IMG/VR virus record: IMGVR_UViG_3300010998_000001
Location: 91,477-155,476 of that record
Direction: 5' to 3' (one strand)
Origin: a virus
Taxonomy: Duplodnaviria; Heunggongvirae; Uroviricota; Caudoviricetes
DNA: 64,000 nt
Part shown: positions 42,170 to 57,451 of the stretch, in pieces
Layout of the letters: every line of letters starts with the position of its first letter
Numbering within the stretch: the stretch's first letter is position 1
Position numbers and translations under genes: made by a program
Notes under the pieces: model-generated
Databases searched by the model: none
Told to the model about the DNA's origin: nothing
What the model saw: only the letters and a program-made list of their open reading frames with translations

Positions 42170-42513
42170 TGGAAGATAGAACAATCAAGTTTATACGCGC
42201 CATTAAAGGTGGAATAGAATTTCGCCCGACGATTGAAGAGACGGCAGTAGCGTTTATGTCTGATTATTCTGGCGTTCCTGAAAGCCGTTATACCAATGAT
42301 TTGCTTTTCAAAATTGTCAAAGATTTCTTTCTTGACTTTCTGAAAACTGCGGATAACCCGTCTTTTGAAATGTGGCGTTTCTTTGATGTGAAGTATAAGG
42401 CATTTGAAACAAGAGATGATACTTATGCTATGCTGGTGACTATGCAGCTCGCGCAAGTGCGTAATGACGATGGATATGTCAATGGTTTTCGTGATTTGGA
42501 AACCGTCAAATGA
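42169..42513 (+). CDS. Hypothetical protein (114 aa)
   Basis: RBS gaggaagga. Confidence 0.4.
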   Translation: MEDRTIKFIRAIKGGIEFRPTIEETAVAFMSDYSGVPESRYTNDLLFKIVKDFFLDFLKTADNPSFEMWRFFDVKYKAFETRDDTYAMLVTMQLAQVRNDDGYVNGFRDLETVK

Positions 42514-42596
42514 AATGTGAGTTTTATCGGCAAAAAATATCAATATATAGTGGAGTGGTAATGTTATAACCACAATATATAGTGGAGGCGAAGAAG

Positions 42597-42782
42597 ATGC
42601 GAGTACGAAGGATGACAATGGCCGAGGGAATGCGGTGGAATCTGTCTCAATACCCGAATTTTTCAGCTACGGGAAGCATTCGCGGCATGAAAGAGAAGTA
42701 TTACGGCAAAGATGCTTTGCTTGTTCGCTGCGGTGGTTTCATCTATAAGGTTCCGGCGAATGTTTATTATGCTGCCTCTTAA
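42597..42782 (+). CDS. Small basic protein
   Basis: RBS ggaggcg. Confidence 0.35.
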   Translation: MRVRRMTMAEGMRWNLSQYPNFSATGSIRGMKEKYYGKDALLVRCGGFIYKVPANVYYAAS

Positions 42783-42800
42783 AGAAAAACAAAATAATGC

Positions 42801-42852
42801 TTGACAACTGCTAATTAGTATGCTATAATACAACCATAGTAAATGAGTTACT
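42801..42852 (+). promoter_or_regulatory. Sigma70 promoter with the AGTAAATGAGTTACT operator, driving the integrase
   Basis: ttgaca 42801-06, tataat 42824-29, palindrome 42838-52. Confidence 0.55.
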
Positions 42853-42870
42853 AATTAGGAGGTAACGATC

Positions 42871-43830
42871 ATGGCACAGACGGCAAGAAAGATGGACGAG
42901 AGCGGAATCATTAACTTCTTTGATTTCTGTGAGCCGCGCCAGGAAGCAGAACAGGACAAAGCTCCGAAACTCAAGAAGGATGGCACTCCTAAAACCATCG
43001 TTTGCAACAAGAAGAGGGGCCGTAAGTCTGAGGTTTACACTCTTGAAATTGCGGACATGAAGAAAATCATTCGTTATTTTGAGGACACCGGGCGCTGGAT
43101 TCATTACCTTCTTTTCGTGATGAGCTGCAACATGGCTCGCCGCGTTGGTGATACTCTCAATCTCCGCTGGTGCAACTTCTATAATGAAGATGGTTCTTTC
43201 CGCAGAGATATTTTTGAGATCGTCGAGGATAAGACCGATAAGCTGGCGAATCCTCATATCAATTCCGCAGTAAGAGCCGCTATTCAGAAGTACATTGAAA
43301 TGACTGGCTGCGATCCTGCCGCGAATGAGTATCAAAACTATGTGTTCCTTCAGTTATCCGGCACACACAAGGGGGCGGTTCTTAGCTACAGCGCGTATAT
43401 GAAGGCTCTGAAAAAGGCGGGAGAGGAAGTCGGTATTGAGTACAATATCGGTACGCACAGCCCTCGCAAAACCTTTGGTATGATGTCCCGTATGCTTCAT
43501 CCCAATGACTATGACAGCATGGAGCTGTTGCAGACTGTTTTCAATCACTCCGATACCAAGACCACGAAACATTACATTGGCTTGACGAAGAAGAAGATTG
43601 ACCAGTATTATGATGATATGGGCGCGTTCTTTGATGCATATGTTACTGGCGACCAGGAATATATCGCGGTCAGCGATAAGCCGATTATCAGCATTGACAT
43701 AAATGATATGCGTGATCTTCTGATGGCTGCTATCAAGGCTGGCTTTGAATCCGGCAAAAACGGCGATCCAGCTTCCATGATGGACAAGTTTAATGAAATG
43801 ATGGAAATGCTGGATACCATGAGAAAGTGA
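42871..43830 (+). CDS. int: Tyrosine recombinase / phage integrase
   Basis: ARRVGDTLNLRW (Arg I), GTHSPRKTFG (His-x-x-Arg) and HSDTKTTKHYIGL (catalytic Tyr). Confidence 0.75.
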   Translation: MAQTARKMDESGIINFFDFCEPRQEAEQDKAPKLKKDGTPKTIVCNKKRGRKSEVYTLEIADMKKIIRYFEDTGRWIHYLLFVMSCNMARRVGDTLNLRWCNFYNEDGSFRRDIFEIVEDKTDKLANPHINSAVRAAIQKYIEMTGCDPAANEYQNYVFLQLSGTHKGAVLSYSAYMKALKKAGEEVGIEYNIGTHSPRKTFGMMSRMLHPNDYDSMELLQTVFNHSDTKTTKHYIGLTKKKIDQYYDDMGAFFDAYVTGDQEYIAVSDKPIISIDINDMRDLLMAAIKAGFESGKNGDPASMMDKFNEMMEMLDTMRK

Positions 43831-43839
43831 GGAAACACA

Positions 43840-44115
43840 ATGAATCCGAAGCGTTACGCGGAGCTGCTTGAGTTCATCCAAAAGAATAATGGATGGGGGC
43901 CGAGCATGGCAAAGAGTCTTTACCAGAAAAAGCGACGGTGTTTCAAATATGTAACCGCTGATTTTGATACAAGAACTGGCCGAGTATGGAGGATTGTCCT
44001 CAGAAGTGGATTGCCGGAGCGTGAAAAAGAATTTCTTGTTAATACGCAGGATGATGTGTATGCTCTATATGAGTATCTGAATACGCCCTATGAGGCTTCT
44101 GACGAGGCGACATGA
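43840..44115 (+). CDS. Hypothetical protein (91 aa)
   Basis: RBS gaggaaac. Confidence 0.4.
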   Translation: MNPKRYAELLEFIQKNNGWGPSMAKSLYQKKRRCFKYVTADFDTRTGRVWRIVLRSGLPEREKEFLVNTQDDVYALYEYLNTPYEASDEAT

Positions 44116-44309
44116 AAGAATATAAGGGAATACCAAAGAACGATATAGGCTGGGTGGAAATCCGCACAGACAGTGGCGATCTGTATTACATCACATCTAA
44201 GAAAGATCGGGAGGTATATTATCTTTATAAGATCGAAGATGATACGGCAAAGCTCATGGGTCAGTCTCAAAATCCATTGAAGCTAGAGGAAAAGTTTATA
44301 AGAAGATAA
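44112..44309 (+). CDS. Hypothetical protein (65 aa)
   Basis: ORF track. Confidence 0.35.
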   Translation: MKEYKGIPKNDIGWVEIRTDSGDLYYITSKKDREVYYLYKIEDDTAKLMGQSQNPLKLEEKFIRR

Positions 44310-44320
44310 CAAACTAAAAC

Positions 44321-44370
44321 TTGACAAAAACATAACTTTGTGATATTCTACATATAGTAACTGAGTTACT
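44321..44370 (+). promoter_or_regulatory. Sigma70-like promoter with the near-perfect palindrome AGTAACTGAGTTACT, driving the MazF-like gene
   Basis: ttgaca 44321-26; palindrome 44356-70. Confidence 0.5.
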
Positions 44371-44470
44371 AAATATAACTGAAAGGAAGGCGATGTGTAG
44401 GCGTAATGCTGGCATATCCTCCACAGAGGCGTAGGCTTTGCCTACATAGCGCCGATGTGGGTATTCCAGA

Positions 44471-44854
44471 ATGTACGAACAGAGTTATGTTAAGCGTCCC
44501 AAGTGCGGCGAGATTTGGATGTGTAACCTTACATCCAAAGAGGGAAGTATTCAGAGCGGGTATCGCCCAGTTTTCATTCTCTCCAACAATAAGAATAACA
44601 CATATAGTCCTACGCTGAATGTGATTCCTCTGACTACGAAGATGAACAAGAGAAGTCTGCCTGTTCATGTGGAGCTTTGGGAATACCGGGCGTATGGATT
44701 GAAAGCACCTAGCACTATGCTTATCGAGCAGATTACGACGGTTCCCGCAGAGAACATGCAGCACTATGTCGGCAAGATTGCGGATCAGAATACACTTGCC
44801 AACATTCGCACGGCCATGAGTGTACAGTTCCCTATCATTTCTCTTGCGGTATAG
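44471..44854 (+). CDS. MazF/PemK-family endoribonuclease toxin homolog with no adjacent antitoxin ORF
   Basis: KRPKCGEIWMCNLTSKEGSIQSGYRPVFILS...VIPLTTK... matches the MazF/Kid N-terminal pattern. The start-codon context is weak. Confidence 0.6.
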   Translation: MYEQSYVKRPKCGEIWMCNLTSKEGSIQSGYRPVFILSNNKNNTYSPTLNVIPLTTKMNKRSLPVHVELWEYRAYGLKAPSTMLIEQITTVPAENMQHYVGKIADQNTLANIRTAMSVQFPIISLAV

Positions 44855-44924
44855 AAAATAACATAATAATGCTTGACATTATCCTTTAGGTGTGATACAT
44901 TTACTTTAAATGGAGGATGATGTT

Positions 44925-45947
44925 ATGCAGACAATTCCTACAAAACAGTTGATCGACGAATACATTGATTCGGAGTTCGGCCAGGATGAAATAACTTTGT
45001 ATAAGGTTCGCGGAGGCATAGATCGAAAAGAGATATATGAGTATGAAGCCAAGATTGGGAAACAGCTCATGGATTTCACCGAAGATGAGATCATCGATAT
45101 GGTATGCACTTTGCAAAATGGCAGAGTTACCAGTCGCGGTGAAGGTGTGTCTTTACTGACGTACAAGAACTTTTTGTCTCGGCTGAGAGGAATTTTTAAT
45201 TACTACATCGAGCATTATGAAGTAATCCGAAATCCGATGAATAGTAAATCCATGCGCGGCGCGGCTGCGCTGGACAAGATTTCAGAGCGAGTTATTAAAC
45301 CATATTCATATGAGGATGTTGAACAACTGATCGCTTATGCACACATGGATGATACGCCAGAGATGGGCGATTGGTTGGAATGTGTGATACTTCTCTTTTA
45401 TAGTGGCTGTCCTTCTCCGCAAGAGCTTACGCGCATTAAAGAGGACATGATCGATTTCAATGCTAATGAAATCCATATGGCGAATGGAGTGACTATCCAT
45501 CCCTCTGCAAGATGCTTGTATCTCTTCAAAAAAGTTCATGAGATGGAAATTGTCATGGGCGGCAAGGGGCGCGGAGTAGGTCAATACCTTATGTATCAGT
45601 ATAAGGATTACTATATGCGCTATCTGATAGTTCCAGGAATGGAATATGAATATAACCAAAGGGAAGAGGAAGTTCTATCAGAGCTAGCAAACAAGATCAA
45701 TCAACAGTTCGCAAAAAGACTTTCCTCGAAGTACAATGTCAAAGCAAGCCCGCGCCAGATATACTTGTTAGGTTTTTATGATTATATGGTAAATAATCTT
45801 GGGCTTGATGAAACGAACGACATTATTTTATCTCAAAGAGATAAGTCAAAGTCTGATATTTTTGTTAGTATGGCGGATCAGTATGGAGTGAACCGCTGCA
45901 ACATTACAGAAATGCGGAATAAGATGCGGCCATTTGTAAGACATTAA
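44925..45947 (+). CDS. Hypothetical protein with distant, probably inactive integrase-like features
   Basis: Own sigma70 promoter at 44867-44895. LLFYSGCPSPQELTRIK sits where a recombinase Arg box would be. No clear catalytic Tyr. Confidence 0.3.
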   Translation: MQTIPTKQLIDEYIDSEFGQDEITLYKVRGGIDRKEIYEYEAKIGKQLMDFTEDEIIDMVCTLQNGRVTSRGEGVSLLTYKNFLSRLRGIFNYYIEHYEVIRNPMNSKSMRGAAALDKISERVIKPYSYEDVEQLIAYAHMDDTPEMGDWLECVILLFYSGCPSPQELTRIKEDMIDFNANEIHMANGVTIHPSARCLYLFKKVHEMEIVMGGKGRGVGQYLMYQYKDYYMRYLIVPGMEYEYNQREEEVLSELANKINQQFAKRLSSKYNVKASPRQIYLLGFYDYMVNNLGLDETNDIILSQRDKSKSDIFVSMADQYGVNRCNITEMRNKMRPFVRH

Positions 45948-46100
45948 AGGCATTGCCGCCAATAGGCGGCTTTGCTAAAACTTAAAAGAGAAAAACAAAC
46001 TAAGTATTGACAAACGATGTGCGATATGGTATAATACTTGACAGATGGAGATTGACTTTCTCCAATATGAAAAAACAAACTAAAGGAAGAAGGGGAACAA

Positions 46101-46715
46101 ATGTCTGAGTTTGTAATTGTTGGCAACGATGGCAGCTATATGAAACAGGAGGGACAGGCATATCGTCCCGTTGGCTTGCTGTCACAGGCTACGCGCTGGC
46201 AGAACAAACAGAAAGCCGAAAATGTCCTGCGAAGCTGTATCAACAAGAATCTTAGGCCACGTTATCACGTTGATCTCGTTCCTGGTACTGCCAACAATTT
46301 TGCTATGAGCGCGGCCAAAGAGCAAGAGATGATTAATATTGGTGCGACGGTGATCGAGGATGGACAGATTGATAAGTGGGCGGCAGATATTGATTCCTTT
46401 GCCACGTTCATCGATGAAACGGAGACACGTCGGGGGCAACTTGATGAGAAGCTGTCCAGCATAGATAAACAGATTACAGACATCTGTCATTACATAGAGT
46501 TCGGTAAATACAATGCGTATCAAGGCTGGCTCATCACCAATATGCTGAGAAACAGATTGCAGCAGCGGCGCAAGGTCAAGAATGAGTTACTTTTTCTTCA
46601 CGATCTTATGCGGTGCAATGTCGATGGCTCTATGATTGACACAATGAAGAATACAATGCGAAAGATTAAGGAACTTGAATATAAGCCAAGGGTGCTTTCT
46701 CAGCTATTCAAGTGA
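46101..46715 (+). CDS. Hypothetical protein (204 aa)
   Basis: RBS ggaagaagggg. A sigma70 promoter lies at 46006-46036. Confidence 0.45.
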   Translation: MSEFVIVGNDGSYMKQEGQAYRPVGLLSQATRWQNKQKAENVLRSCINKNLRPRYHVDLVPGTANNFAMSAAKEQEMINIGATVIEDGQIDKWAADIDSFATFIDETETRRGQLDEKLSSIDKQITDICHYIEFGKYNAYQGWLITNMLRNRLQQRRKVKNELLFLHDLMRCNVDGSMIDTMKNTMRKIKELEYKPRVLSQLFK

Positions 46716-46725
46716 GGGAGAAAAA

Positions 46726-47214
46726 ATGAAACTATCGAATATCAGAATTTTGCCGTACTTTCAGCGAACACCGCCTTCTGAAATAAAGATGGATATGTGC
46801 CGTACTTATTTCAAAAACCACGGAGTTCTTGACAGAGAGATCATCCTGGATCATCGTTTGACTCTCACAGATGGTTATGTCGGCTATCTCGTTTTGAAGG
46901 AGAATGGGATCGAAGATGTAGATTCCTATGTAAGAGTAGAGGCAAGAGCGGCAGATTCGCGTCCGGTGAATCCACCGTATTGGACACAGGAAACGACTTA
47001 TGTATTCGGTAAACATCCGAATTGCGACAAAGAATATGTTTGGCGTATCAAAAAGTCAAATAAATCTGTCGATGAGTTTATGCGCGTCGGGGGCAAGGCC
47101 ATTGTAAGTACCCGTAATGGCAACAAGGTAATTACGATCACGCGAATTGAAACGATGAATCATTCTCCGACAAATAGAATTGTAAAGAAGGTGATCCGAT
47201 GCTTGCCAGAGTGA
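46726..47214 (+). CDS. ParB/Srx-like N-terminal domain protein
   Basis: NIRILPYFQRTPPSEIK...LTDGYVGYLVL resembles the ParB nuclease/NTPase fold. Confidence 0.4.
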   Translation: MKLSNIRILPYFQRTPPSEIKMDMCRTYFKNHGVLDREIILDHRLTLTDGYVGYLVLKENGIEDVDSYVRVEARAADSRPVNPPYWTQETTYVFGKHPNCDKEYVWRIKKSNKSVDEFMRVGGKAIVSTRNGNKVITITRIETMNHSPTNRIVKKVIRCLPE

Positions 47215-47226
47215 AGAAATTTTTGT

Positions 47227-47445
47227 TTGACATCACGCCACGGATTTATCGCTTGCCGACTGTTACATATATACGCTGGATGGATAAAGAGTTCATCATT
47301 AATCGGAGCTTTTGATATGGGCGACGAAATGCGAAAAGATGATTGGCAAGAGCCAATTTATAATGACAGATATATAGTGCATCACGAGGACGGCACAAGC
47401 GAAGTATATGATATGAGTGGCAACCAAATTATTTATCATACATAA
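47227..47445 (+). CDS. Small hypothetical protein (the real start may be at 47317)
   Basis: ORF track. Confidence 0.3.
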   Translation: MTSRHGFIACRLLHIYAGWIKSSSLIGAFDMGDEMRKDDWQEPIYNDRYIVHHEDGTSEVYDMSGNQIIYHT

Positions 47446-47453
47446 TAGGTAGG

Positions 47454-47750
47454 TTGGAAAAAATGAAACATAGAGAAAAGAAGTATAAGAAACTGCGGCG
47501 GTTTATGAAGAAGCAGGGAACCAATTTTGGAGAGAACTATGTTGTTTATAACCAGGTGACACGCATGAACAACATTATGATGCCAGCCGTCGTTGGTGGT
47601 CAGAAGATTGTCACGAACGGATATGACGAGCTGGATGCCGTGAGGAAATATTACAAGCTGTGGCGCGATAGTATTCGGATGCAAAAGAAGATGGCAGAGA
47701 TAGTAAAGAGAGAAGATCGCCATATGCGATACTTAGAGAAGAACAAGTAA
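47454..47750 (+). CDS. Hypothetical basic protein (98 aa)
   Basis: RBS taggtagg. Confidence 0.4.
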   Translation: MEKMKHREKKYKKLRRFMKKQGTNFGENYVVYNQVTRMNNIMMPAVVGGQKIVTNGYDELDAVRKYYKLWRDSIRMQKKMAEIVKREDRHMRYLEKNK

Positions 47751-47812
47751 TTAAAACGGGATTTTATCTGCATGGTTTTAGGGCGTTTTTACAAAATATC
47801 TAATAAAAAGAC

Positions 47813-47850
47813 CTAAACCCCTTGCGCCCCAAGGGTTTGCGGACTTGAAA
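47813..47850. terminator. GC-rich hairpin (AAACCCCTTG-CGCC-CCAAGGGTTT) with a downstream T-run; candidate intrinsic terminator between operons
   Basis: Direct reading. The T-run is ~10 nt removed from the stem. Confidence 0.4.
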
Positions 47851-47919
47851 ATATTTTTATTGTAAAAATGCTATTTTCAATAAAATGCAAATTTGATTTT
47901 AGCCATTCGGAGGAATATA

Positions 47920-48117
47920 ATGTGTAGCTGTTATTATGATTTTGACACAAGAAAAAGAAACACGAAGGATAGGCTTGAGGATTATCTTGTAGGCCATGGT
48001 TTTATATATGAATTGTTTGACCGCGGCGGCGCAGGAAATCCAAATTGGCACTTTGAAATCCTTCTAAGTGACAATGATGTGCCAGTTGTCAACCACTACT
48101 TAAATCAAATTGCCTAA
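47920..48117 (+). CDS. Small protein (65 aa) immediately upstream of the nucleotidyltransferase
   Basis: RBS cggaggaa. Confidence 0.35.
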   Translation: MCSCYYDFDTRKRNTKDRLEDYLVGHGFIYELFDRGGAGNPNWHFEILLSDNDVPVVNHYLNQIA

Positions 48118-48130
48118 TAGGAGATAATAA

Positions 48131-49156
48131 ATGAAGATCGAAGAAATAAAAGAAGCAATCCAGACAGAAAGCTATAATTTTCTTCGTACCCATCCGGCGC
48201 TAGGGAACAACATTATTCTTCTTGGCCTTGGCGGGAGCCATGCTTATGGTACAGAAAATGCGAATAGTGATTTGGATGTTCGGGGGATCGCCACAAATAC
48301 AAAGAGATTTCTTCTGACTGGCCGCGATTTCGAGCAGTATGTGGAGCGTGAAACAGACACAACGGTTTATTCCTTCGACAAAATGATTAAGTTGCTTTGC
48401 AACTGCAATCCTAATACGATTGAAATTCTTGGTCTAAAGCCGGAGCATTATCTGAGGATGACAAGAGCTGGAAAGATGCTGCTTGATAACAAAGAGATTT
48501 TTCTTTCCAAGATTGCAGTTCATTCCTTTGGCGGTTATGCAAATTCTCAACTTCGCAGACTGGAAAACAAATCGGCGCGGCTCGCAAGCCAGGAACAGCA
48601 GGAAAAGAATATTCTGAAAAGCATTGAGAATGCCAGCGTAGATTATAAGCAGCACTATTTCCATTTCCCTGATGATGCTATCCGTCTTTTCATTGATGAG
48701 ACTGACCGCGAGGGATATAACACAGAGATTTTCATGGATGTGAATTTGTCTCATTATCCTCTGCGTGATTATACTGGCCTGTGGAGCGAGATGCAGAACG
48801 TGGCGAAAGCGTATGCAAGCATTGGAAAGAGAAATGAGAAGGCAATCGCGCACGACAAGCTGGGGAAGCATATGTGCCATTTGGTAAGGCTCTACCTCAT
48901 GTGTTTCGATATTCTTGAAAAGGGAGAGATCAACACCTTCCGCGACAAAGACCACGATCTTCTTATGTCCATCCGTAATGGACGGTATCTTGACGAAAAC
49001 CGTCAGCCTATTCCAGAGTTCTATGAAATGGTCGATGGATTAGAAAAGCGCCTCGATTATGACAAGACGCATACTGAGCTGCCGGACAGACCAGACATGG
49101 AAGCTGTATATGATCTGGCAATGACAATTAATGAAGAAGTGTGTAGGAGCGTGTAA
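48131..49156 (+). CDS. Pol-beta-superfamily nucleotidyltransferase (RlaP-like GS-x-AYG...SD-x-D class)
   Basis: GLGGSHAYGTENANSDLDVRG; 341 aa. Confidence 0.6.
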   Translation: MKIEEIKEAIQTESYNFLRTHPALGNNIILLGLGGSHAYGTENANSDLDVRGIATNTKRFLLTGRDFEQYVERETDTTVYSFDKMIKLLCNCNPNTIEILGLKPEHYLRMTRAGKMLLDNKEIFLSKIAVHSFGGYANSQLRRLENKSARLASQEQQEKNILKSIENASVDYKQHYFHFPDDAIRLFIDETDREGYNTEIFMDVNLSHYPLRDYTGLWSEMQNVAKAYASIGKRNEKAIAHDKLGKHMCHLVRLYLMCFDILEKGEINTFRDKDHDLLMSIRNGRYLDENRQPIPEFYEMVDGLEKRLDYDKTHTELPDRPDMEAVYDLAMTINEEVCRSV

Positions 49157-50428
49157 ATGTACCTTCCATCTGATGTAGAGTATATTCTTGAAGTCTTATA
49201 TCTCAATGGGTATCAAGCGTATTGCGTTGGTGGATGTGTTCGTGACAGTTTGATGGGTATTAAGCCGCACGACTATGACATTTGCACGTCGGCAACACCA
49301 GATCAAATCTTGGGCATATTCAACGAATGTGGCTTGCGCTGTCTTACCGTGGGCCTGAAACATGGCACGGTCACGGTCATTCTTGGCAGCGAGCAATATG
49401 AGATCACGACATTTCGTATTGATGGTGATTATTCAGATGGTAGACACCCGGACGAGGTAATATTTACAGACAAGCTTTATGAGGATTTGGCGCGACGGGA
49501 TTTCACTATGAACGCCATTGCCTATAATTTCAGAGATGGGATCGTAGACCCATTCCACGGTCAGGATGATATTAAGCGGCGCATTATCCGCTGTGTTGGT
49601 GATGCCAATGAACGATTCCAGGAGGACGCTCTGCGTATGCTGCGCTGTCTGCGCTTTGCCTCGCGGTTCAATGATCTATATATAGACGGCGATACCAGAC
49701 AAGCGCTTATAACTAATGCGCATCTTCTCAAGAATGCGTCTGTCGAGCGCATTCAGTCTGAGCTTGTGCAGATTTTGGAGTGCGACAATCATTCTAACCA
49801 AATCCTGTATGAGAATTTGATCTATCTTCTTTCCGTCGTTGTGCCGGAGCTTGAGATGGATGATAAATATGATATAGCTCGCCACCTGATCGGACAACAT
49901 TCAACTGGCCGCAATGTCTATACAATGGCGGCTCTTCTTTTCGATTTCTGTGAAGAGACGCTAGATGATGTTTTGCGCCGCTTGAGATTCCCGAATGATG
50001 ATATTTACCACATCAAGCATATCAGCGCCAATGGCTATGATATTGTTGAAAATCTTGACATTCTTATGTCTGGTAATGTCGATCTCGATATTTTTGCGCG
50101 AGATATTATCAGCCGCATAGGATATGGGGACGCTTTTGAATCTGTGAATTATGCGATCTCCTATCAGAGCGTTGATATGGACAAGGTGAGTTTTCTTTTT
50201 GGTCTGAAGGAGATCGTCGGCGCACACTATGTAGACGAGGGCCGCATTACTATTTCGTCTCTTGAGATTAACGGAAATGATTTGCTGGCTCTTGGGTATC
50301 AGGATCGCAAGATTGGAGAGATGCTAAACATCCTTCTTGATAAAGTCATTCATTATGAGCTTGGGAATAAGCGCGATCAACTCATGTGGTTTGTGAAAAA
50401 TTATAAAGCAAAACAAACTAAGTCTTGA
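49157..50428 (+). CDS. cca: tRNA nucleotidyltransferase (CCA-adding enzyme)
   Basis: GYQAYCVGGCVRDSLMGIKPHDYDICTSATPDQI matches the class-II CCA-enzyme head motif. Confidence 0.8.
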   Translation: MYLPSDVEYILEVLYLNGYQAYCVGGCVRDSLMGIKPHDYDICTSATPDQILGIFNECGLRCLTVGLKHGTVTVILGSEQYEITTFRIDGDYSDGRHPDEVIFTDKLYEDLARRDFTMNAIAYNFRDGIVDPFHGQDDIKRRIIRCVGDANERFQEDALRMLRCLRFASRFNDLYIDGDTRQALITNAHLLKNASVERIQSELVQILECDNHSNQILYENLIYLLSVVVPELEMDDKYDIARHLIGQHSTGRNVYTMAALLFDFCEETLDDVLRRLRFPNDDIYHIKHISANGYDIVENLDILMSGNVDLDIFARDIISRIGYGDAFESVNYAISYQSVDMDKVSFLFGLKEIVGAHYVDEGRITISSLEINGNDLLALGYQDRKIGEMLNILLDKVIHYELGNKRDQLMWFVKNYKAKQTKS

Positions 50429-50453
50429 CAAATCAAGAATAATCTGCTATAAT
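50425..50453 (+). promoter_or_regulatory. Sigma70 promoter with an extended -10 (ctgcTATAAT), upstream of the Thg1-like gene
   Basis: ttgaca-aatcaagaataatctgc-tataat. Confidence 0.5.
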
Positions 50454-50483
50454 ACAGTATAGAAAAACGAAAGGACAGAAACA

Positions 50484-51284
50484 ATGACAAAGGATTCTCT
50501 TGGAGATCGGATGAAAGCCTACGAGAACATCAATCGAAATTATCTCATGCGGCGAGTGCCAGTTGTGATTCGCCTGGATGGGAAAGCGTTCCATACCTTC
50601 ACCCGTGGATTCAATAAGCCGTTTGATGATGTTTTCTCTGCCGCCATGGGCGACACAATGAAATATCTTTGTGAGAATATCCAGGGATGCGTTCTTGGTT
50701 ATACTCAGTCAGACGAGATTTCTTTGTGCCTGGTTGATTACCAGAAACTAGATAGTGATGCCTGGTTTAGCTACAACATTCAGAAGATGGCGAGCGTGGC
50801 CGCGAGTATGGCAACACTCAAATTCAATAATGCGTTTCTTCGCCATGTAGAAGAAACAAAGAGTATTCTATCGTATCCCGATCCAGTTAAAGATATGTTG
50901 GACGATGATCCTACGCCGTTTTCGGCTTATTACACAGCAAAGTTTCGTGGCGCAATGTTCGATGCTCGTTGTTTCAGTCTGAGTAAGGAAGAGGTTTGCA
51001 ATTACTTTCTCTGGCGGCAGAACGATGCTGTAAGAAATTCTATCTCAAGCGCGGCGCAATCCCTATTCTCTCATAACGAGCTGCTGGGAATTGACTCTAA
51101 TGGCCTTCAGGATAAGATGTTCACAGAACGCGGTGTAAACTGGAATGACTATCCTACGAAGTATCGACGCGGTTTCTGCTGTGTCAAAGGCGAAGATGGA
51201 AAATGGTTTCTTGATACAGAGATTCCTATTTTCAAGGGCGAGGATCGCGCCTATATCGACAAATTTATTTATGTTGGCGAATAA
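50484..51284 (+). CDS. Thg1-like protein (tRNA-His guanylyltransferase family, 3'-5' nucleotide addition)
   Basis: KAYENINRNY...VVIRLDGKAFHTF...GYTQSDEISLCL parallels Thg1 (EYV...RIDGKHFHRF...YGESDEYSF). Confidence 0.75.
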   Translation: MTKDSLGDRMKAYENINRNYLMRRVPVVIRLDGKAFHTFTRGFNKPFDDVFSAAMGDTMKYLCENIQGCVLGYTQSDEISLCLVDYQKLDSDAWFSYNIQKMASVAASMATLKFNNAFLRHVEETKSILSYPDPVKDMLDDDPTPFSAYYTAKFRGAMFDARCFSLSKEEVCNYFLWRQNDAVRNSISSAAQSLFSHNELLGIDSNGLQDKMFTERGVNWNDYPTKYRRGFCCVKGEDGKWFLDTEIPIFKGEDRAYIDKFIYVGE

Positions 51285-51319
51285 AGTAAATCAAACTAAA
51301 GACAATTAAGGAGATTTTA

Positions 51320-52180
51320 ATGAACAAAAATTATTCTAAGATTATTGGCGCGGTTGTTGCTGTCGTAATTGTACTGATTCTGATTATGTCGTGTACGGTT
51401 GTGATTGGAGCCGGACATACTGGCGTTGTATCTACGTTTGGCAAAATCAGTGAAGATGTCCTCCAGGAAGGATTTTCTTTTAAGGCCCCGTGGCAAAAGG
51501 TAACTAAGGTTGATAACCGTATTTCGATGCTGACTGTATCAACAGAGGCATTTAGTTCTGACCTTCAGACGGTTAGTGTTGTTGTTGCTGTGAATTATCG
51601 TATTGATACGAGCAAGAGTTATTACATCATCAAAAATATTGGAAAGGATTACGAGGATGTTCTGGTTAATCCTTCTGTGAACGAGGTTCTGAAACAGATC
51701 ATTGCGCAGTACACGGCAGAGCAGAGCATTACTAATCGCGGCGTAATTTCTCTTGCACTTCTTGATGGGCTGAATGAAAAGCTAAATGCAAGTGGTATCT
51801 ATGTGAGTGATATTAACATTATCGACTTTGATTTTAGCGATACATATATTGATGCCGTGGAAGCGAAACAGGTCGCGGAACAGGCCATGCTCAAGGCTCA
51901 GATCGAACAGGAGCAGATGACTATGGAGCGGGAAGCCCAGGCAGAGCGCGATATTATTGCCGCCGAAGCCGCTCTTGAAGTGAGCAAGATCGAGGCCGAA
52001 GCCGTAGAGTTTGCCGGACAGAAAGAGGCCGCAGCGAATAAGGCTATTAGTGAGAGTATTACGTCGGAGCTTGTAGAGTATTATAAGGTTCAGGCTTGGG
52101 ATGGCGCACTTCCAACTATTACTGGAAGTGAATCTATAATCACTCTTACTGGTGTTACTGATGACTCTGACGCGCAGTAA
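51320..52180 (+). CDS. SPFH/band-7 (prohibitin/HflC-like) membrane protein
   Basis: N-terminal TM helix, SPFH-like core, and a C-terminal EAQ/A-rich coiled-coil. Confidence 0.55.
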   Translation: MNKNYSKIIGAVVAVVIVLILIMSCTVVIGAGHTGVVSTFGKISEDVLQEGFSFKAPWQKVTKVDNRISMLTVSTEAFSSDLQTVSVVVAVNYRIDTSKSYYIIKNIGKDYEDVLVNPSVNEVLKQIIAQYTAEQSITNRGVISLALLDGLNEKLNASGIYVSDINIIDFDFSDTYIDAVEAKQVAEQAMLKAQIEQEQMTMEREAQAERDIIAAEAALEVSKIEAEAVEFAGQKEAAANKAISESITSELVEYYKVQAWDGALPTITGSESIITLTGVTDDSDAQ

Positions 52181-52207
52181 TTGAATCAAAAAAAGGAGAA
52201 TAATGAG

Positions 52208-52840
52208 ATGAAGATTAAGATTGAGAATAATGTTCCAAATGTAAGGGTTACTGTCAACAAGGCAGATGATGGCACGTTTTCTATTCTTCTTGTAGAGGAT
52301 GATAAAAAGAAGCTGGGAGATATCTCTTGCGGAGCAGTTGTTAAGATTGGCGACATTGAGTATATCGTTCTTGACCATCTTGATAATGGTGGTACAGCGG
52401 TTATCACTAAAGAGTTTGCGTATAACGATATGAAGTTTGGCGATAGTGCAGATTGGCGCAGTTCCATCATCCGTGCGAAACTGAATAACGAATTTTATAA
52501 TGCGCTTGCAGAGATTGTTGGTGTAAATAATATTATTCCGATGACAAGAGATTTGACCAGCCTTGATGGTCTTAGAGATTATGGTGAATGCGAGGATATG
52601 GTTTCTCTTCTTACCATGGATGAGTATAGAAAGTACCACGAAATCCTTGGCCTCATGTCCAATTATCTTGATTGGTGGTGGACTATTACCCCGTTCTCTA
52701 CTCCTAGCAATAACTATTCTCGTGGCGTGTGCTACGTCATTTCCGATGGCACTCTGAATTGGTGCGATTGTGGCTATGGTAGCGCGGTTCGCCCGTTTTG
52801 TATTCTTGATTCTTCCGTCTTGGTGTCTTGCGAGGAATGA
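52208..52840 (+). CDS. DGR target protein (210 aa) with a C-terminal variable region, probably a C-type-lectin-fold ligand-binding module
   Basis: The 3' end holds the VR (52717-52797), which matches the TR except at TR adenines. RBS aaaaggag. Confidence 0.8.
   Translation: MKIKIENNVPNVRVTVNKADDGTFSILLVEDDKKKLGDISCGAVVKIGDIEYIVLDHLDNGGTAVITKEFAYNDMKFGDSADWRSSIIRAKLNNEFYNALAEIVGVNNIIPMTRDLTSLDGLRDYGECEDMVSLLTMDEYRKYHEILGLMSNYLDWWWTITPFSTPSNNYSRGVCYVISDGTLNWCDCGYGSAVRPFCILDSSVLVSCEE
52717..52797 (+). repeat. DGR variable repeat (VR) plus the GC-rich initiation-of-mutagenic-homing element GCGGTTCGCCCG
   Basis: 81-bp match to the TR with 11 substitutions, all at TR adenines. Confidence 0.85.
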
Positions 52841-53208
52841 ATGAGAAAAACACCAAGTTTGAGATTGGTGATAAAGCAGAAACATTATATTTTGATGTAT
52901 TTGACAGAACAACAAATAGAAAGAATTATCCGGTGAAATTTCGCCGTATGGCAGATAAATTACAAGAGTTTTCTCTTGATATATATAGTTATTTGTTGGA
53001 TGCTAATTCCTTTTCGGGCGTAAGCGAGGAAAATAGACGAAGGCGATATACTTTAAAAACAAGGGCAATTACTTGCTGTAACAAGTTCCTAAGTCTAACT
53101 AAATATAGTTTACACGCCCATCTTATTAGCGCGGCGACAAGTGAAACATGGACGAATTTAGCACATGATATTAAATTTATGACTCTCGCTTGGAGAAAGA
53201 ACGATTGA
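52837..53208 (+). CDS. avd: Accessory variability determinant (Avd-like small basic helical protein)
   Basis: Sits between the target gene and the TR. ~123 aa and basic, which is the canonical DGR arrangement. Confidence 0.6.
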   Translation: MNEKNTKFEIGDKAETLYFDVFDRTTNRKNYPVKFRRMADKLQEFSLDIYSYLLDANSFSGVSEENRRRRYTLKTRAITCCNKFLSLTKYSLHAHLISAATSETWTNLAHDIKFMTLAWRKND

Positions 53209-53232
53209 TACATTCTTTAGGCTATACGCTGT

Positions 53233-53313
53233 ATCTCGTAACGTGTGCTACGTCAATTCCAATGGCACTCTGAATTGGAACGATTGTGACTATAGTAACG
53301 CGGTTCGCCCGTT
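53233..53313 (+). repeat. DGR template repeat (TR), with AAC codons at the positions that vary in the VR
   Basis: In the target frame the TR encodes SRNVCYVNSNGTLNWNDCDYSNAVRPF. The Asn-AAC codons correspond to the variable VR codons. Confidence 0.85.
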
Positions 53314-53418
53314 CTGGTGGATTAGTGAGGTCTATAAACTGTTTCGGCAGCTACAAGGAGTACACCACATCATCAAAAGAGCGTATAACCTTTCTCGCCT
53401 CGTGCGGGATAAATACAA

Positions 53419-54465
53419 ATGAATATGGGAGATTTTCAAAAACTAATTGATTTTGAAAACCTTTATAACTCTTATAAAGTATCTCTCAAAGGCAAGGGAC
53501 AGAAATCAGGTGCGATCAAATTTAAAGTTATGGCGCTTGAAAATCTGTGTGTTATGAAACGCCAGTTGGTAGAACATACATACAAGATTTCTCCGTATTC
53601 TGAGTTTATAGTGACCGAGCCAAAACGAAGGGTGGTCAAATCAGGTTCTTTCCGAGATAAGGTTCTTCAACATTGCCTATGCGATTATGTCTTATTACCG
53701 AAGATGAAAGATATTTTCATCCAAGATAATTATGCGGGTCAAATAGGCAAGGGAACTTTATACGGGTTGGATCGTTTGTCAGAAAATCTAACTCATTTTT
53801 ATGGCGAATATGGTTGTGAAGGATATATATTGAAGTGCGATATTGCCAAGTTCTTCTATAATATCAATCATGACTTGATGAAAAAATGTATCAAGAAATA
53901 CTTTGAAGATAAAGACATTCGTTGGGTATGTAATCTATTCATAGATAGCGTTGATGGAGATGGCTTACCGTTAGGTAATCAATGCAGTCAAGTTTTTGCG
54001 CTGATGTATCTTAATGGTTTAGATCATTTCATCGTAGAAAAGTTAGGGTGTAAGTATTATGGTAGATATATGGATGATTTTTATTTATTATCGAATGATA
54101 AAGAATATCTCAAAGATTGTCTGAAACAAATCGAGTCTTTTCTGGCTAAATTAAAGTTGACATTAAATAACAAAACAGAGATTGTGCCGATGCGCAAGGG
54201 TATAAGGTTTTTGGGTTTTCACACATATATTACTGAGCAAGGTAAAATCATTCGTAAACTGACGGGTGACAATAAAAGACAGATAAAGAAGAAGCTTCGC
54301 AAGAAAGCGGCCCTTGTCAATAAGGGAAAAATGACAAGAAAGCAATTTAATGAATCGTATTATTCGTGGCGTAATCATGCCTCGCATGGGAATTGTTATA
54401 AGCTGATATGCGAAATGGATAAATATGTAGAATCATTATTTAGAACGGAGAGTAAGATAATATGA
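53419..54465 (+). CDS. DGR reverse transcriptase
   Basis: RT motifs: FRDKVLQ, GLPLGNQCSQ (the DGR-type [LIV]GxxxSQ instead of QGxxxSP), and YGRYMDDFYLL (YMDD). Confidence 0.85.
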   Translation: MNMGDFQKLIDFENLYNSYKVSLKGKGQKSGAIKFKVMALENLCVMKRQLVEHTYKISPYSEFIVTEPKRRVVKSGSFRDKVLQHCLCDYVLLPKMKDIFIQDNYAGQIGKGTLYGLDRLSENLTHFYGEYGCEGYILKCDIAKFFYNINHDLMKKCIKKYFEDKDIRWVCNLFIDSVDGDGLPLGNQCSQVFALMYLNGLDHFIVEKLGCKYYGRYMDDFYLLSNDKEYLKDCLKQIESFLAKLKLTLNNKTEIVPMRKGIRFLGFHTYITEQGKIIRKLTGDNKRQIKKKLRKKAALVNKGKMTRKQFNESYYSWRNHASHGNCYKLICEMDKYVESLFRTESKII

Positions 54466-55526
54466 TTAAATATTTTGATAAACAGAATTGCTTTGTAGAA
54501 TTGTTTGATCCTACGAATGGTTATTATGCTCGCACGGGAGTATTGAATGACAAGGGTGAAGATACTGGTGTTGATCCTTTCATGCGCGATTTTCCGGCGC
54601 TCATCGACATTGGTATTATGCAGAGCTGCGTTTGTGCGAAGCGTTGCAAAGTGGACTGTTACCAGAAAGCGATTGATCGGTTTGGTGCGAATATGAGCCT
54701 TGATGATTACAAGGAAATCATGCGCCAGTCAAAGGGTAAAGTATTTCAGGTTGCGCTTGGCGGCGCTGGTGATCCTGATACACATGAGAACTTCGGCGCT
54801 ATTCTGAAAATCACCAGAGAACATAACATCGTTCCTAACTTTACAACCTCTGGTATTGCGTTCTATTCAGATAAGGCAAGGCTGTGTAAAGACTATTGCG
54901 GAGCCGTGGCCGTAAGCGAACATTGGGCTGATTATACGGGAAACGCTATCAAGAATCTTTTGGATGCTGGCGTAAAGACAAACCTTCATTATGTGCTGTC
55001 GAATAAGAGTATCGACGATGCTATTGCGCGGTTGCGCGAAGGCTGTTTCTATGATGGTATCAATGCCGTCGTATTCCTTCTTTATAAACCGATTGGCCTT
55101 GGCAAGCGAGAGAATGTTCTGCGGCCAGATGATCCGAAGTTGAATGAATTTTTCGAGCTGGTGGATAAGGGCGGCTATGATTTCAAGATTGGATTTGATA
55201 GCTGTTCATGTCCTGGTATCGTCAACAAAACATCGAATGTTGATTTGCAGAGCATCGACTTCTGTGAAGGTGCGCGGTACTCCATGTATATCGACGCTCA
55301 TATGAACGCCATGCCTTGTTCCTTTGGCAACCAGGATGAAAAGTATTTTGTAAGTCTGCGCGACTTTACGATTGAAGAGGCATGGCATAGCTATGTGTTC
55401 GAGGATTTCCGTAGGCATCTGCGCGATTCCTGCCCTGGATGTGCAAATCGTTATGGTTGCGCTGGCGGTTGTCCAATTTGCCGCGATATTGTTCTATGTA
55501 ATGCGAAAGAGAAGGTTCTTGTATGA
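54462..55526 (+). CDS. Radical-SAM-like enzyme with a C-terminal SPASM-type Cys cluster
   Basis: N-terminal Cys cluster SCVCAKRCKVDC (non-canonical spacing). GGxGDP at ALGGAGDP. C-terminal CPGCANRYGCAGGCPIC, which fits CX2CX5CX3C. Confidence 0.45.
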   Translation: MIKYFDKQNCFVELFDPTNGYYARTGVLNDKGEDTGVDPFMRDFPALIDIGIMQSCVCAKRCKVDCYQKAIDRFGANMSLDDYKEIMRQSKGKVFQVALGGAGDPDTHENFGAILKITREHNIVPNFTTSGIAFYSDKARLCKDYCGAVAVSEHWADYTGNAIKNLLDAGVKTNLHYVLSNKSIDDAIARLREGCFYDGINAVVFLLYKPIGLGKRENVLRPDDPKLNEFFELVDKGGYDFKIGFDSCSCPGIVNKTSNVDLQSIDFCEGARYSMYIDAHMNAMPCSFGNQDEKYFVSLRDFTIEEAWHSYVFEDFRRHLRDSCPGCANRYGCAGGCPICRDIVLCNAKEKVLV

Positions 55527-56164
55527 ATCCATTTCTATTTGTTTTCGGTCTGGCGTTACCTTGGATTATCAGTTTTGTTATTAATGTAATTCAAGAAGCA
55601 ACAAATAATGATGAGGTTGATGAAGATAAGGAAACAAAGTCAACCAATAAAGAACTGTGCCATGATTATGAAAAATATAAGGATGATGCCGATATGATTC
55701 CTTTGACGTTCTCACAGTTTCATTCTTATTATTCACTGAATCCGGCTATGTGGAAGTTGGGGAAGTATTATGCCAAACGTGTTCAAGATGGCGTTACCAA
55801 CAATGACATATGGCGTTATGACGAGCTGTGTTCTCAGTATGGCGAAGATGGTGTTGATGCTGTTTTCAAAAGTAAACGATCTCTGTTTTACTGTATTCAT
55901 TTTGCGACGTTTGAGGATTTTAAAAAGTACAGAAAGTTTATCGCAACAGAAGAACAGCGGATTGCAGATGAAAAGGAACGCGAGCGGCTAAAAAGAGAAA
56001 TGGAGCGTAAGAAGAAACTTACGGTTGCTTTCTTGGAGTCCATTCAGAAAGACATTGATAATATGCGGCAGCTCAGTCAAGACGAATATAACCAGGCGCT
56101 TGATACTGTTTCCAAGATTAAGCAACACGCAGATGAAGTGTATGCCACGCGCACAGCGCATTAA
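55523..56164 (+). CDS. Membrane-anchored coiled-coil protein (213 aa)
   Basis: N-terminal TM helix, then a charged coiled-coil. Confidence 0.4.
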   Translation: MNPFLFVFGLALPWIISFVINVIQEATNNDEVDEDKETKSTNKELCHDYEKYKDDADMIPLTFSQFHSYYSLNPAMWKLGKYYAKRVQDGVTNNDIWRYDELCSQYGEDGVDAVFKSKRSLFYCIHFATFEDFKKYRKFIATEEQRIADEKERERLKREMERKKKLTVAFLESIQKDIDNMRQLSQDEYNQALDTVSKIKQHADEVYATRTAH

Positions 56165-56199
56165 ATAAAATAAAAAATTAATTTGATGGAGAAATAATT

Positions 56200-56484
56200 A
56201 TGCGAGTAGTAATTGTTAAGCACGAAAGTTGTGGCACAAAGTATTTGTTCCAGGTGCCGGAGCCGTATAGTTTTTTGACTGGTGATCTCGTCAGTGTTAA
56301 GACGCGCAAGGGAACAACTACAATGGCGACGTGTCTGAGTCCGTCTTTTGACATTGACGAAAACAGCGAGCGATTTAAGGAGCTGTGTGTGAATATGGGC
56401 GCGACTGTTCCGCTGTCGCCTGTTGTCGGCTATTATAACTATGTTGATATTGCGCAGGAAACGCAAAGGGTAGTTGATTTCTAA
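56200..56484 (+). CDS. Hypothetical protein (94 aa)
   Basis: RBS gatggag. Confidence 0.4.
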   Translation: MRVVIVKHESCGTKYLFQVPEPYSFLTGDLVSVKTRKGTTTMATCLSPSFDIDENSERFKELCVNMGATVPLSPVVGYYNYVDIAQETQRVVDF

Positions 56485-56486
56485 TT

Positions 56487-56900
56487 ATGAAAATTCGCAC
56501 AGACTTTGTAACAAATAGTTCTAGCAGCAGTTTTCTTGTGGCATACCGCGAGCCAAATGAAGATAGTAAGTATGCCGCGCTCTATAAGCATCTTCTTGAA
56601 GCTATTATCAAAGCTGAAGGATATGATACAGATGTAGCGATGGTTTTTTATTCCCAAGATGAATTTGATAATTGGATTATTGAAAGTGAATCTTGGTGTG
56701 GCGCAAAAACCATCGAGGATGTTTTTAAGAATTACGGTTATAGTAAAGAACTATATGATAAGGCCCGTCCTTATTTTGAACAAGGGTTTGTTTTATTTAG
56801 AAAAAATATTTCTTATGATGATGTCGCCCTTGTTGACCTCATCGGAAATATTTCCGAGAGTACAGATGATTTTGTAATTTTGGAGGATAGTGAAGCATGA
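56487..56900 (+). CDS. Paralog 1 of the MKIRTDFVTNSSSSSF family (137 aa)
   Basis: Shares its N-terminal 16 residues with the next two ORFs. Confidence 0.55.
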   Translation: MKIRTDFVTNSSSSSFLVAYREPNEDSKYAALYKHLLEAIIKAEGYDTDVAMVFYSQDEFDNWIIESESWCGAKTIEDVFKNYGYSKELYDKARPYFEQGFVLFRKNISYDDVALVDLIGNISESTDDFVILEDSEA

Positions 56901-57442
56901 AAATTAGAACTGATTTTGTAACCAATTCTAGTAGCTCTAGCTTTATCCTGTCGTTTTCTGACGAAGATAGGATTGATGCAGAAGTAAATGATATGCTTAT
57001 GCTGTATGGTGATCCTATCAAGAAGATCGTTTCTCGTGATGCAAGCATAGGACGGAAATTTACCAAGAAAGAAATACTTGACGCGGCAGAAAAGGCCGTG
57101 CCTGTGTTTGGTGAATATGGTATGGTTCGTTTCGATGGCGTAAACGATGAAGGTGTTGTCCATCTGTTGGAAGAATTTTGGTATAAGGCAAAGTGGGAAG
57201 TAGATTGCCATAAAAGATACGGCGGTCATATGTCGTGGTCTGAAACGATGGATTATTTGCGTACTGACGCTGGCCGAGCAGAGATCATGCAGGAGTATAA
57301 AAGCTATTTTAGTAAATTTGAAAAGTATAGTGATGACTGTATCTTTGTCGAGGTAGAGTACGAGGATCATGATGAGATCGGCGCAATGCTGGAACATGAA
57401 ATCCTTCCGTCAAAATGCGTTATCAGTTTTAATCATCATTAA
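56897..57442 (+). CDS. Paralog 2 of the MKIRTDFVTNSSSSSF family (181 aa)
   Basis: N-terminus MKIRTDFVTNSSSSSFIL. Confidence 0.55.
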   Translation: MKIRTDFVTNSSSSSFILSFSDEDRIDAEVNDMLMLYGDPIKKIVSRDASIGRKFTKKEILDAAEKAVPVFGEYGMVRFDGVNDEGVVHLLEEFWYKAKWEVDCHKRYGGHMSWSETMDYLRTDAGRAEIMQEYKSYFSKFEKYSDDCIFVEVEYEDHDEIGAMLEHEILPSKCVISFNHH

Positions 57443-57451
57443 GGAGAGAGT

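Follow-up and report, generated by a model that had tools for sequence, protein, structure and literature searches.

Organization of the locus

We analyzed a 64,000-nt stretch of phage DNA (positions 91,477 to 155,476 of the IMG/VR record IMGVR_UViG_3300010998_000001; hereafter the window), in which a first-pass annotation had placed a complete diversity-generating retroelement (DGR). All parts of such an element were found, namely a pair of template repeat (TR) and variable region (VR), a DGR-type reverse transcriptase (RT), an Avd protein, and a target protein of the DUF6273 family with a C-type-lectin (CLec) fold. They lie on the plus strand in the order that had been annotated: an SPFH gene, the target gene, avd, the TR, the RT gene, and a radical-SAM/SPASM-like gene. 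The target gene (52208..52840) encodes 210 aa, and its ATG is preceded by an AGGAGA ribosome-binding site. The start of avd (52837..53208, 123 aa) overlaps the target stop codon (ATGA). The VR (52717..52798; core 52718-52797, codons 171-197) is located at the 3' end of the target open reading frame (ORF), on the CLec fold of the modelled protein, and the TR (53233..53314; core 53234-53313) occupies the intergenic gap between avd and the RT gene. The RT gene (53419..54465) encodes 348 aa from the ATG at 53419, while homologues suggest ATG 53425 as the true start. A 59-aa ORF (53243-53422) begins as an in-frame reading of the TR.

The two repeats differ only at template adenines

The direct repeat (52718-52800 versus 53234-53316, offset 516, ungapped) is the sole long one in the region. 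The first-pass annotation had drawn it as 52717-52797 and 53233-53313 with 11 mismatches; realignment reproduced these boundaries, again gapless with offset 516, and reduced the mismatches to 10 in 81 bp (7 A>G and 3 A>T, including the boundary base 52717/53233). As annotated, each of them sets an A in the intergenic copy against a T or G in the genic one (10/10), and the non-A positions are all identical (62/62). The 80-bp core (52718-52797 / 53234-53313) contains 9 mismatches, in which a TR adenine corresponds to G (7) or T (2) in the VR. The hypergeometric probability of all 9 falling on the 18 adenines of 80 positions is 2.1e-7, and that of 10/10 on the 19 adenines of 81 positions is ~5e-8 by our own calculation. 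Past 52797/53313 the homology fades at once, with a T/C mismatch, TG, and then unrelated sequence.

In the target frame, all 18 core TR adenines occupy the first or second position of a codon. The annotated coincidence of AAC codons with the variable sites held in part: the seven codons changed in the VR read AAC (three), AAT (two), GAC and AGT in the TR, and the sixth AAY codon of the TR (53273) is the same in the VR. The TR specifies 12 variable codons, none of whose substitutions reaches a stop codon, giving a repertoire of ~4.7e10 protein variants. No further copy of the TR, with A treated as N, was detected on either strand of the 64-kb window.

Both copies close with the GC-rich sequence GCGGTTCGCCCG, as had been noticed before, and the VR 3' end GCGGTTCGCCCGTT (52784..52797; identical in the TR at 53300-53313) resembles an initiation of mutagenic homing (IMH) element. 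An equivalent GC-rich block is common to TR and VR in each of five relatives. Beyond this block, the TR-side sequence GTTCTGGTGG is unchanged in the window and nine relatives, and the window shares the VR-side sequence GTTTTG with five relatives. By analogy with phage BPP-1, the GCGGTTCGCCCGTT element may direct homing. No extended IMH/IMH* pair was found at the VR and TR ends.

The reverse transcriptase and Avd are of DGR type

The RT contains the catalytic residues D141 and D219/D220 (YMDD) and the motif LPLGNQCSQ, both in agreement with the first reading. It matches RVT_1 (5e-17) and phrog_1423 (8e-110), and its best match among solved structures is the 328-aa RT 8ub7 (E = 2e-36), aligned from end to end. 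The numbering of 8ub7 (D138, D215/D216, Q187) agrees with that of the Bordetella phage bRT (bioRxiv 10.1101/2023.10.23.563531). Residues S190-Q191 (LGNQCSQ) align with S186-Q187 of bRT, and D141 and D219/D220 with D138 and D215/D216. Group II intron RTs and retron-type RTs gave 2e-11 and 9e-11, respectively, and thus the bRT match is better by 25 orders of magnitude. The group II, retron and Drt models of NCBIfam all scored far under their cut-offs (TIGR04416, group II, 102.9 versus 300; retron St85, 51 versus 235). In GenBank phages the closest RT is that of nd12 (52% identity), followed by those of nd4, FP_Brigit, Lelie and FP_Toutatis (38-40%); Bordetella and Faecalibacterium DGR phage records are also within the 128 GenBank matches. 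By these matches, the RT belongs to the DGR clade, where the first-pass annotation had also placed it, and is distinct from group II intron and retron RTs.

Avd matches phrog_3206, "Avd protein of DGR" (1.8e-10). Its AlphaFold2 (AF2) model is a four-helix bundle with a predicted local distance difference test (pLDDT) score of 92. The model superposes on the S23-IVP/Avd-family structures 2rld and 2gsc with template modelling (TM) scores of 0.75-0.85, and Foldseek returned 2rld (TM 0.80/0.85) and BPP-1 Avd, 4dwl (TM 0.69/0.78). One Avd homologue is labelled as originating from a Prevotella metagenome-assembled genome.

The target is a single DUF6273 domain

The first-pass annotation described the target as a small, non-structural-looking protein with a C-terminal Cys/Trp-rich module, and proposed profile searches for a CLec-type fold. 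The protein can be classified: a Pfam search assigned it to DUF6273 (PF19789; 28.5 bits, cut-off 23.5, residues 74-202), a published DGR target domain, and the structural model has the CLec fold. The target also matches phrog_9958 (3e-43), and its listed homologues carry PF19789 or no domain. The AF2 model, built with 27 homologues, has a pLDDT of 89.4, and among structures it is matched best by the N-terminal DUF6273 domain of the T. ramosa IgA peptidase (PMC12402451); phmmer against PDB sequences gave no meaningful match. The protein consists of a single DUF6273/CLec-fold domain, and no signal peptide or transmembrane segment is visible in its N-terminal sequence. The codons changed in the VR are those of G173, I178, D180, C186, G189, G191 and S192. 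In the model, variable codons 173-192 map to the C-terminal β-hairpin (strands 173-177, 183-187, and 191-194). The VRs of the DGR targets of phages nd4 and nd12 likewise lie on the DUF6273 β-hairpin (PMC10743442).

A conserved RNA structure encloses the template repeat

We aligned the region from the end of avd to the start of the RT gene in the window and nine relatives (10 sequences). This region shows 77-84% nucleotide identity, compared with ~71% for coding sequence. Across 35 tested pairs, 94.6% of cells are paired and 11 pairs have compensatory changes, whereas only 38-52% of the whole structure's cells pair when the partner is slid by 1-3 columns. The TR is enclosed by a 12-bp duplex between 53219..53232 and 53378-53391 (96.7% of cells paired and 4 pairs with compensatory changes in the 10 sequences), the counterpart of the avd:Sp "cPRT Stop" duplex of BPP-1. 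Directly 3' of the TR lies a stem-loop (53325..53365), a candidate for Avd binding. Its apex hairpin (53337-53352) has compensatory changes in 5/5 pairs and a UUCG cap in the 7-sequence consensus (A2), and its lower stem is weaker (80% of cells paired). Downstream of the stop duplex, a short hairpin (53393-53409; 5 pairs, 100% paired, one compensatory, AU/GC, 6:4) is followed by the A-rich, near-invariant AUAAAUACAAA; together (53393..53420) they correspond to the stem-loop and adenosines of the BPP-1 cPRT Stop. The sequence GGGATAAATACAAA is near-invariant across the aligned sequences. In BPP-1, the cPRT Stop duplex, the stem-loop and the adenosines block the polymerase just upstream of the TR, and the stem-loop after the TR binds Avd (bioRxiv 10.1101/2023.10.23.563531).

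The segment 53371..53391 comprises CAUCA (53371-53375, candidate primer), a 2-nt spacer (AA), and the 3' arm of the stop duplex. CAUCA is predicted to pair with UGGUG (53315..53319), the candidate template strand. Both motifs are unchanged in 9 of the 10 sequences, the window included; one relative has a one-sided change from G-C to G-U. The spacing of CAUCA, AA and the stop duplex equals that around Sp A56 and G57-C58 of BPP-1 (bioRxiv 10.1101/2023.10.23.563531). By this correspondence, A53375 is predicted to be the priming nucleotide and C53314 the first templating nucleotide, with cDNA synthesis stopping near 53233, and the predicted cDNA would span exactly the TR/VR homology, including the A-to-T boundary difference at 53233/52717. 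Helices proposed by RNAalifold within the TR had no compensatory changes and were dropped from the model. An Rfam scan of 51000-56000, with a library that includes group II intron and retron RNAs, returned three matches (E 0.39-0.6) far under their gathering scores.

Adenine-directed diversification in relatives

The closest IMG/VR relatives (loci L001-L006 and L088-L100 of our set) lie on contigs of 65-160 kb. Five relatives with ~75% RT identity have the target-avd-TR-RT layout and TRs of their own that differ from that of the window. Each VR agrees with the TR of its own phage at all non-A bases inside the repeat and differs at adenines only; the lone non-A difference, in L004, is in the 5' boundary column. 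Relatives also have a second DUF6273 gene, tens to ~125 kb away, that matches the TR. On one 156-kb contig, the TR of L006 (3809-3889) and a remote VR (L080, 3987-4067) lie ~125 kb apart and differ at 11 A positions and at no non-A position. For two further remote VRs (L066 with the TR of L005, L067 with that of L003), the differences number 14 and 9 at A positions and 2 and 5 elsewhere.

Variation between samples was seen at the protein level. Among the closest homologues, which share 57-66% identity with the window protein, three clusters at 90% identity vary at ~12 VR positions within the pattern R-x-VC-x-V-x-S-x-G-x-L-x-W-xx-C-xx-C-x-GVRPF, and these positions correspond to the A-bearing codons of the window TR. 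A fourth cluster, whose representative lacks an RT within 7 kb at both sites inspected, is nearly invariant at those positions and serves as a natural negative control. The evidence of diversification at the level of the lineage is strong.

The phage itself was recovered in two further assemblies. An ENA contig (ERZ3810914 NODE_10, 155,440 bp) is 100% identical to the window over 42208-53278, and a JGI contig (3300011005; L056) over 47235-58033. The ENA contig ends in the middle of the TR, at 53278, and the window extends past this point. The differing ends would fit a circular or circularly permuted genome, and the break in the TR could stem from ambiguity between the TR and VR repeats in the assembly graph, or from a heterogeneous VR. 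The JGI contig, otherwise identical, lacks 50712-50855, 55070-55229 and 55962-56101 (144, 160, and 140 bp), which lie inside the Thg1 gene, the radical-SAM gene and the ORF 55523-56164. Two of these gaps are frameshifting and none has junction microhomology; either artefacts of assembly or genuine deletions could explain them. Scans of IMG/VR, JGI metagenome contigs and GTDB genomes with the TR (A as N) gave no match, but the window's own sequence is also absent from these collections, so the null result is uninformative on population variation or on a second target in the ~155-kb genome. We consider it likely that the DGR of the window is currently active.

Genomic context of the cassette

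The phage (~155 kb) encodes a terminase, a sliding clamp, an exonuclease, many HNH endonucleases, two tyrosine recombinases, a MazF/PemK-like protein, and 16 tRNAs. The first-pass annotation had assigned the cassette to an early or accessory region rather than a tail module. Sigma-70-type promoters on the plus strand and tRNA-repair neighbours support that assignment. An extended -10 promoter of sigma-70/sigma-A type (TTGACA-N14-TGc-TATAAT; 50425..50453, plus strand) matches the hexamers at 12/12 positions. It heads Thg1, SPFH, target, avd, TR, RT, the radical-SAM/SPASM gene and onward; the next promoter is at 57887, and no convincing terminator was found from 50425 to the cassette or up to 57887. 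The site at 50425 would function as a promoter, judging from its sequence. The window contains 14 matches to TTGACA-N14-TGnTATAAT (11 of them perfect, the other 3 with a single mismatch), compared with 0.06 expected: 23564, 26122, 27565, 30812, 31862, 32135 (minus strand), 32230, 35298, 39665, 42801, 46007, 50425, 57887 and 59028. Thirteen are on the plus strand at 23.5-59 kb, and none is in the terminase-side block. Several lie within 60-70 bp intergenic repeats (AAAACAAA..TTGACA..TGCTATAAT). Being consensus matches only, these sites would mark an "early" regime of the host RNA polymerase that includes the DGR. Bacteroidota promoters are unlike the sigma-70/sigma-A extended -10 TTGACA/TATAAT type, which suggests that the host is not a member of Bacteroidota.

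Upstream of the DGR genes, 48131-51284 encodes a tRNA repair and maturation set: an RlaP-family nucleotidyltransferase, a CCA-adding enzyme, and a Thg1-like tRNA-His guanylyltransferase. Within the tRNA array, genes for HNH endonucleases and for a DUF2828/DUF7788 protein (phrog_850, "RNA-binding protein") are interspersed (60610-62121). Of two tRNAs that ARAGORN reports in the array, at 58036-58111 and 58685-58756, one has the anticodon TCA (labelled selenocysteine) and could suppress UGA, and the anticodon loop of the other (gagt) is oversized. The TCA tRNA prompted a search for stop-codon recoding, which was rejected, as alternative codes gave no clear gain in ORF length in the window.

Right after the RT, the segment 54462-57856 contains the radical-SAM/SPASM-like gene, two small ORFs, and three tandem paralogues. 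The radical-SAM gene has a SPASM domain above the Pfam cut-off and an N-terminal cysteine motif CX3CX3C, where CX3CX2C is usual. The paralogues (56487, 56897, and 57452) begin MKIR(T/S)DFVTNSSSSSF and have no Pfam match and a weak match to phrog_7397. The same gene set is near the DGR in L002, L003, L006 and L099, and it could represent a maturase with its substrates. At the other end of the window, on the minus strand (654-3682), a large-terminase homologue is apparently split. The ORF 2315-3682 matches TerL families, and the ORF 654-1208 matches the PHROG families 24618 and 26582, which also match the C-terminal part of the ORF 2315-3682. A homing/HNH endonuclease ORF (1238-2104) lies between them, and the split could be an intron- or intein-type insertion.

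The target gene starts 27 nt past the SPFH gene (both within 51320-52840). In FP_Toutatis, an unrelated 54-kb Faecalibacterium phage, an SPFH gene is found two small genes upstream of the homologous target; the SPFH proteins of the two phages are 41% identical (E = 3e-70) and the targets 31%. The loci compared were L057 (FP_Toutatis, 5096-7621), L059 (5088-7639) and L064 (8739-10534). Some large relatives have a flotillin-type SPFH gene in that upstream place. We rejected SPFH as a general partner of small DUF6273 targets, since it occurs within 10 kb in only 6/80 IMG/VR loci of such targets and in 0/48 loci of other-type DGRs. The pairing stays a lineage-specific lead. In four distinct settings, the small DUF6273 targets belong to an early or replication module: the clade of the window; Toutatis and Lelie, between methyltransferases and a replication initiator; nd4, adjoining an exonuclease-like gene and a single-stranded DNA-binding protein (SSB) gene; and a 55-kb phage, between SSB and RecT and near an Apyc1-like gene. 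This placement and the shared SPFH gene go slightly beyond the literature consulted.

Proposed mechanism and alternative explanations

The anatomy of the locus, the adenine-only pattern, the folds, the RNA covariation and the diversification observed in relatives lead us to regard the locus as very probably a DGR, and we put at about 0.88 the probability that it is a canonical one working by mutagenic retrohoming. The element is probably complete and working. In the following scheme, the site of priming, the ends of the cDNA and the homing are taken by analogy from BPP-1. An RNA of ~200 nt spanning 53219-53420 would be transcribed within the operon headed by the sigma-70-type promoter at 50425. 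The 12-bp duplex (53219-53232/53378-53391) would close off the TR, and the stem-loops on its 3' side would bind the RT-Avd complex. The RT would self-prime from the spacer (predicted A53375) onto the nucleotide that follows the TR on its 3' side (predicted C53314) and copy the TR back to the stop duplex, misincorporating opposite the 18 adenines. The shared GCGGTTCGCCCGTT would then guide the ~82-nt complementary DNA to the target gene, where it would replace the VR (52717-52798). As a result, 12 codons on the surface β-hairpin would be randomised, giving up to ~5e10 variants and no stop codon, with the scaffold and the TR left intact.

Several observations weigh against this reading. The VR is identical in the three assemblies, with no heterogeneity seen, and the 90% protein cluster of the target holds the window sequence only. 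Avd has no Pfam, NCBIfam or PDB sequence match (phmmer and profile versus PDB), and its Foldseek E-values are weak (1.8e-3; 0.29 for 4dwl) despite TM-scores of 0.7-0.85, in a fold, the helical bundle, that matches easily; its link to 4dwl is through fold comparison only. The primer:template duplex is nearly invariant and hence has no support from covariation. BPP-1 has a hairpin after its VR, and the DNA hairpin 3' of the VR in the window is not significant (z -1.5). Finally, the target lies in an early, host-polymerase-type operon with tRNA-repair genes and SPFH as neighbours, which is unusual for a receptor-binding protein (RBP).

The uniform VR and the single-member cluster would be expected if the cassette were a recently inactivated relic whose TR/VR pattern records past activity, and the RT lacks the C-terminal YAcAr/SLOG domain of most close relatives. 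We consider this improbable. All ORFs are intact, the catalytic residues and the RNA elements are conserved, and the absence of non-A differences over 62 positions places homing recently relative to drift. Moreover, the three assemblies represent at most two samples, and L001 also has a short RT (341 aa) and yet an A-only TR/VR pair. An ordinary duplication or recombination event beside an unrelated RT of retron or group II intron type, with no templated mutagenesis, would agree with the sub-threshold matches of the RT to the retron and group II intron (102.9 bits versus 300) models. It is effectively refuted by the adenine-only asymmetry (P ~5e-8) and its recurrence in five independent relatives, by the far better match to bRT than to group II intron and retron-type RTs, by the lack of a significant Rfam family at 51000-56000, and by the presence of avd and of RNA elements of the DGR type.

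The role of the diversified protein is the weakest link, as its gene lies in an early-type operon outside the structural module. We lean slightly towards a ligand-binding module that recognises a variable surface structure, on the virion or after release. The DGR could also be real and the target an early cytoplasmic or membrane-proximal binder, possibly acting with SPFH in host takeover, counter-defence or superinfection exclusion. The missing signal peptide, the close SPFH gene, the perfect sigma-70-type promoter heading the unit, the concentration of such promoters away from the terminase side, and the RlaP, CCA-adding enzyme and Thg1 neighbours all point that way, as do the small targets in replication or early modules of FP_Toutatis, Lelie, nd4 and the 55-kb phage and the homologous SPFH gene of Toutatis. 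However, SPFH accompanies few of the small-DUF6273 loci, DUF6273 is also part of multidomain phage proteins with tail, RBP or Hoc-like annotations (PMC10743442), virion genes are scattered in large phages, early transcription is read from consensus matches only, and no intracellular ligand can be named. We therefore hold this role to be rather unlikely for the window target, and we view with still more doubt its extension to small DUF6273 targets at large as early intracellular or membrane-proximal binders, paired in some lineages with an SPFH/prohibitin scaffold. If it were true, a DGR would serve host takeover, counter-defence or exclusion by means of a hypervariable "antibody" within the infected cell.

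With mutagenic retrohoming as the preferred reading, the locus is a clean example in which the predicted start and stop of the cDNA coincide with the ends of the TR/VR homology, which makes the cryo-EM model of BPP-1 testable in a Bacillota-type phage DGR. The context is a more useful lead than the DGR itself: the target lies in an early-type operon with tRNA-repair and SPFH neighbours, and homologous small targets of unrelated phages are likewise found in early or replication modules. If the small targets are not virion proteins, they would represent a second, unexplored use of DGR-driven variation in phages.

Comparison with known systems

The locus is a new example of a published kind of element and involves no new mechanism. 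Megablast of the cassette against GenBank phages gave no match. DUF6273 has been described as a CLec-fold DGR target in gut phages, where small single-domain targets include "target2" of nd4 and nd12, the "small targets" of Lelie and CP11, and the remote second target of Toutatisvirus, and the authors hypothesise Mtd-like receptor binding (PMC10743442, PMC11792537, bioRxiv 2024.10.15.618418). In nd4/nd12, FP_Toutatis (gp24) and Lelie, the RT clade and the avd-TR-RT order are as in the window, and Toutatis gp24 is 31% identical to the window target over 83% of its length. The DGRs of gut Bacillota phages have the VR at the DUF6273 C-terminus, on the β-hairpin, and, as in the window, their small single-domain targets are located outside structural modules; Toutatis and Lelie also have an SPFH/prohibitin gene upstream. 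The differences concern scale and arrangement. The window phage is ~155 kb long with tRNA arrays and tRNA-repair genes, whereas published gut DGR phages are 33-55 kb; unlike them, it shows one target in the 64-kb window and no Ig-domain "tentaclin"-type target. Its target adjoins avd, whereas the small target of Toutatis is 17 kb from the TR.

The IMG/VR relatives share ~75% RT identity, the same avd, and a TR/spacer RNA of 77-84% nucleotide identity, and their neighbouring gene families match those of the window (integrases, PemK, radical-SAM/SPASM, and "FVTNSSSSSF" paralogues). The relatives behind L003, L005, L006 and L090 have two small DUF6273 genes each. Class B lies beside avd and is 44-48% identical to the window protein; class A is 52-63% identical to it and lies far from the cassette, at a distance of a few kb upstream of RlaP-CCA in several loci. 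The class A copy still matches the TR in 3/3 pairs tested. Judged by sequence, the window has the class A orthologue directly at the cassette, with the two loci merged and one target visible. Most close relatives have RTs of ~470 aa with a C-terminal YAcAr domain (PF10686, SLOG/DprA-like), which the RTs of the window (348 aa) and L001 (341 aa) lack. The domain is part of the RT in L003 (4001-5413), L002, L004 and L006, and is a separate ORF in L005.

TvpA of Treponema denticola (2y3c), a bacterial CLec-fold DGR target, is ~10% identical to the window target. TvpA is a surface lipoprotein of a bacterium, whereas the window target is a phage protein with no visible signal peptide. In BPP-1 (mtd-avd-TR-brt), the gene order, the adenine-specific changes, the AAY-rich TR codons and the shared GC-rich 3' end are as in the window, and the catalytic and SQ residues of the RT and the fold of Avd align with those described here. 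The 210-aa single-domain target differs from Mtd in having no β-prism or β-sandwich and in not lying beside tail genes. The TR is shorter (~81 nt versus 134 nt), and the VR/TR homology stops after the GC-rich block without the extended IMH/IMH* pair of BPP-1. The RNA architecture is nevertheless alike in the two phages, with a stop duplex enclosing the TR, a stem-loop with adenosines after it, and a 2-nt spacer after the priming adenosine, which in the window is predicted.

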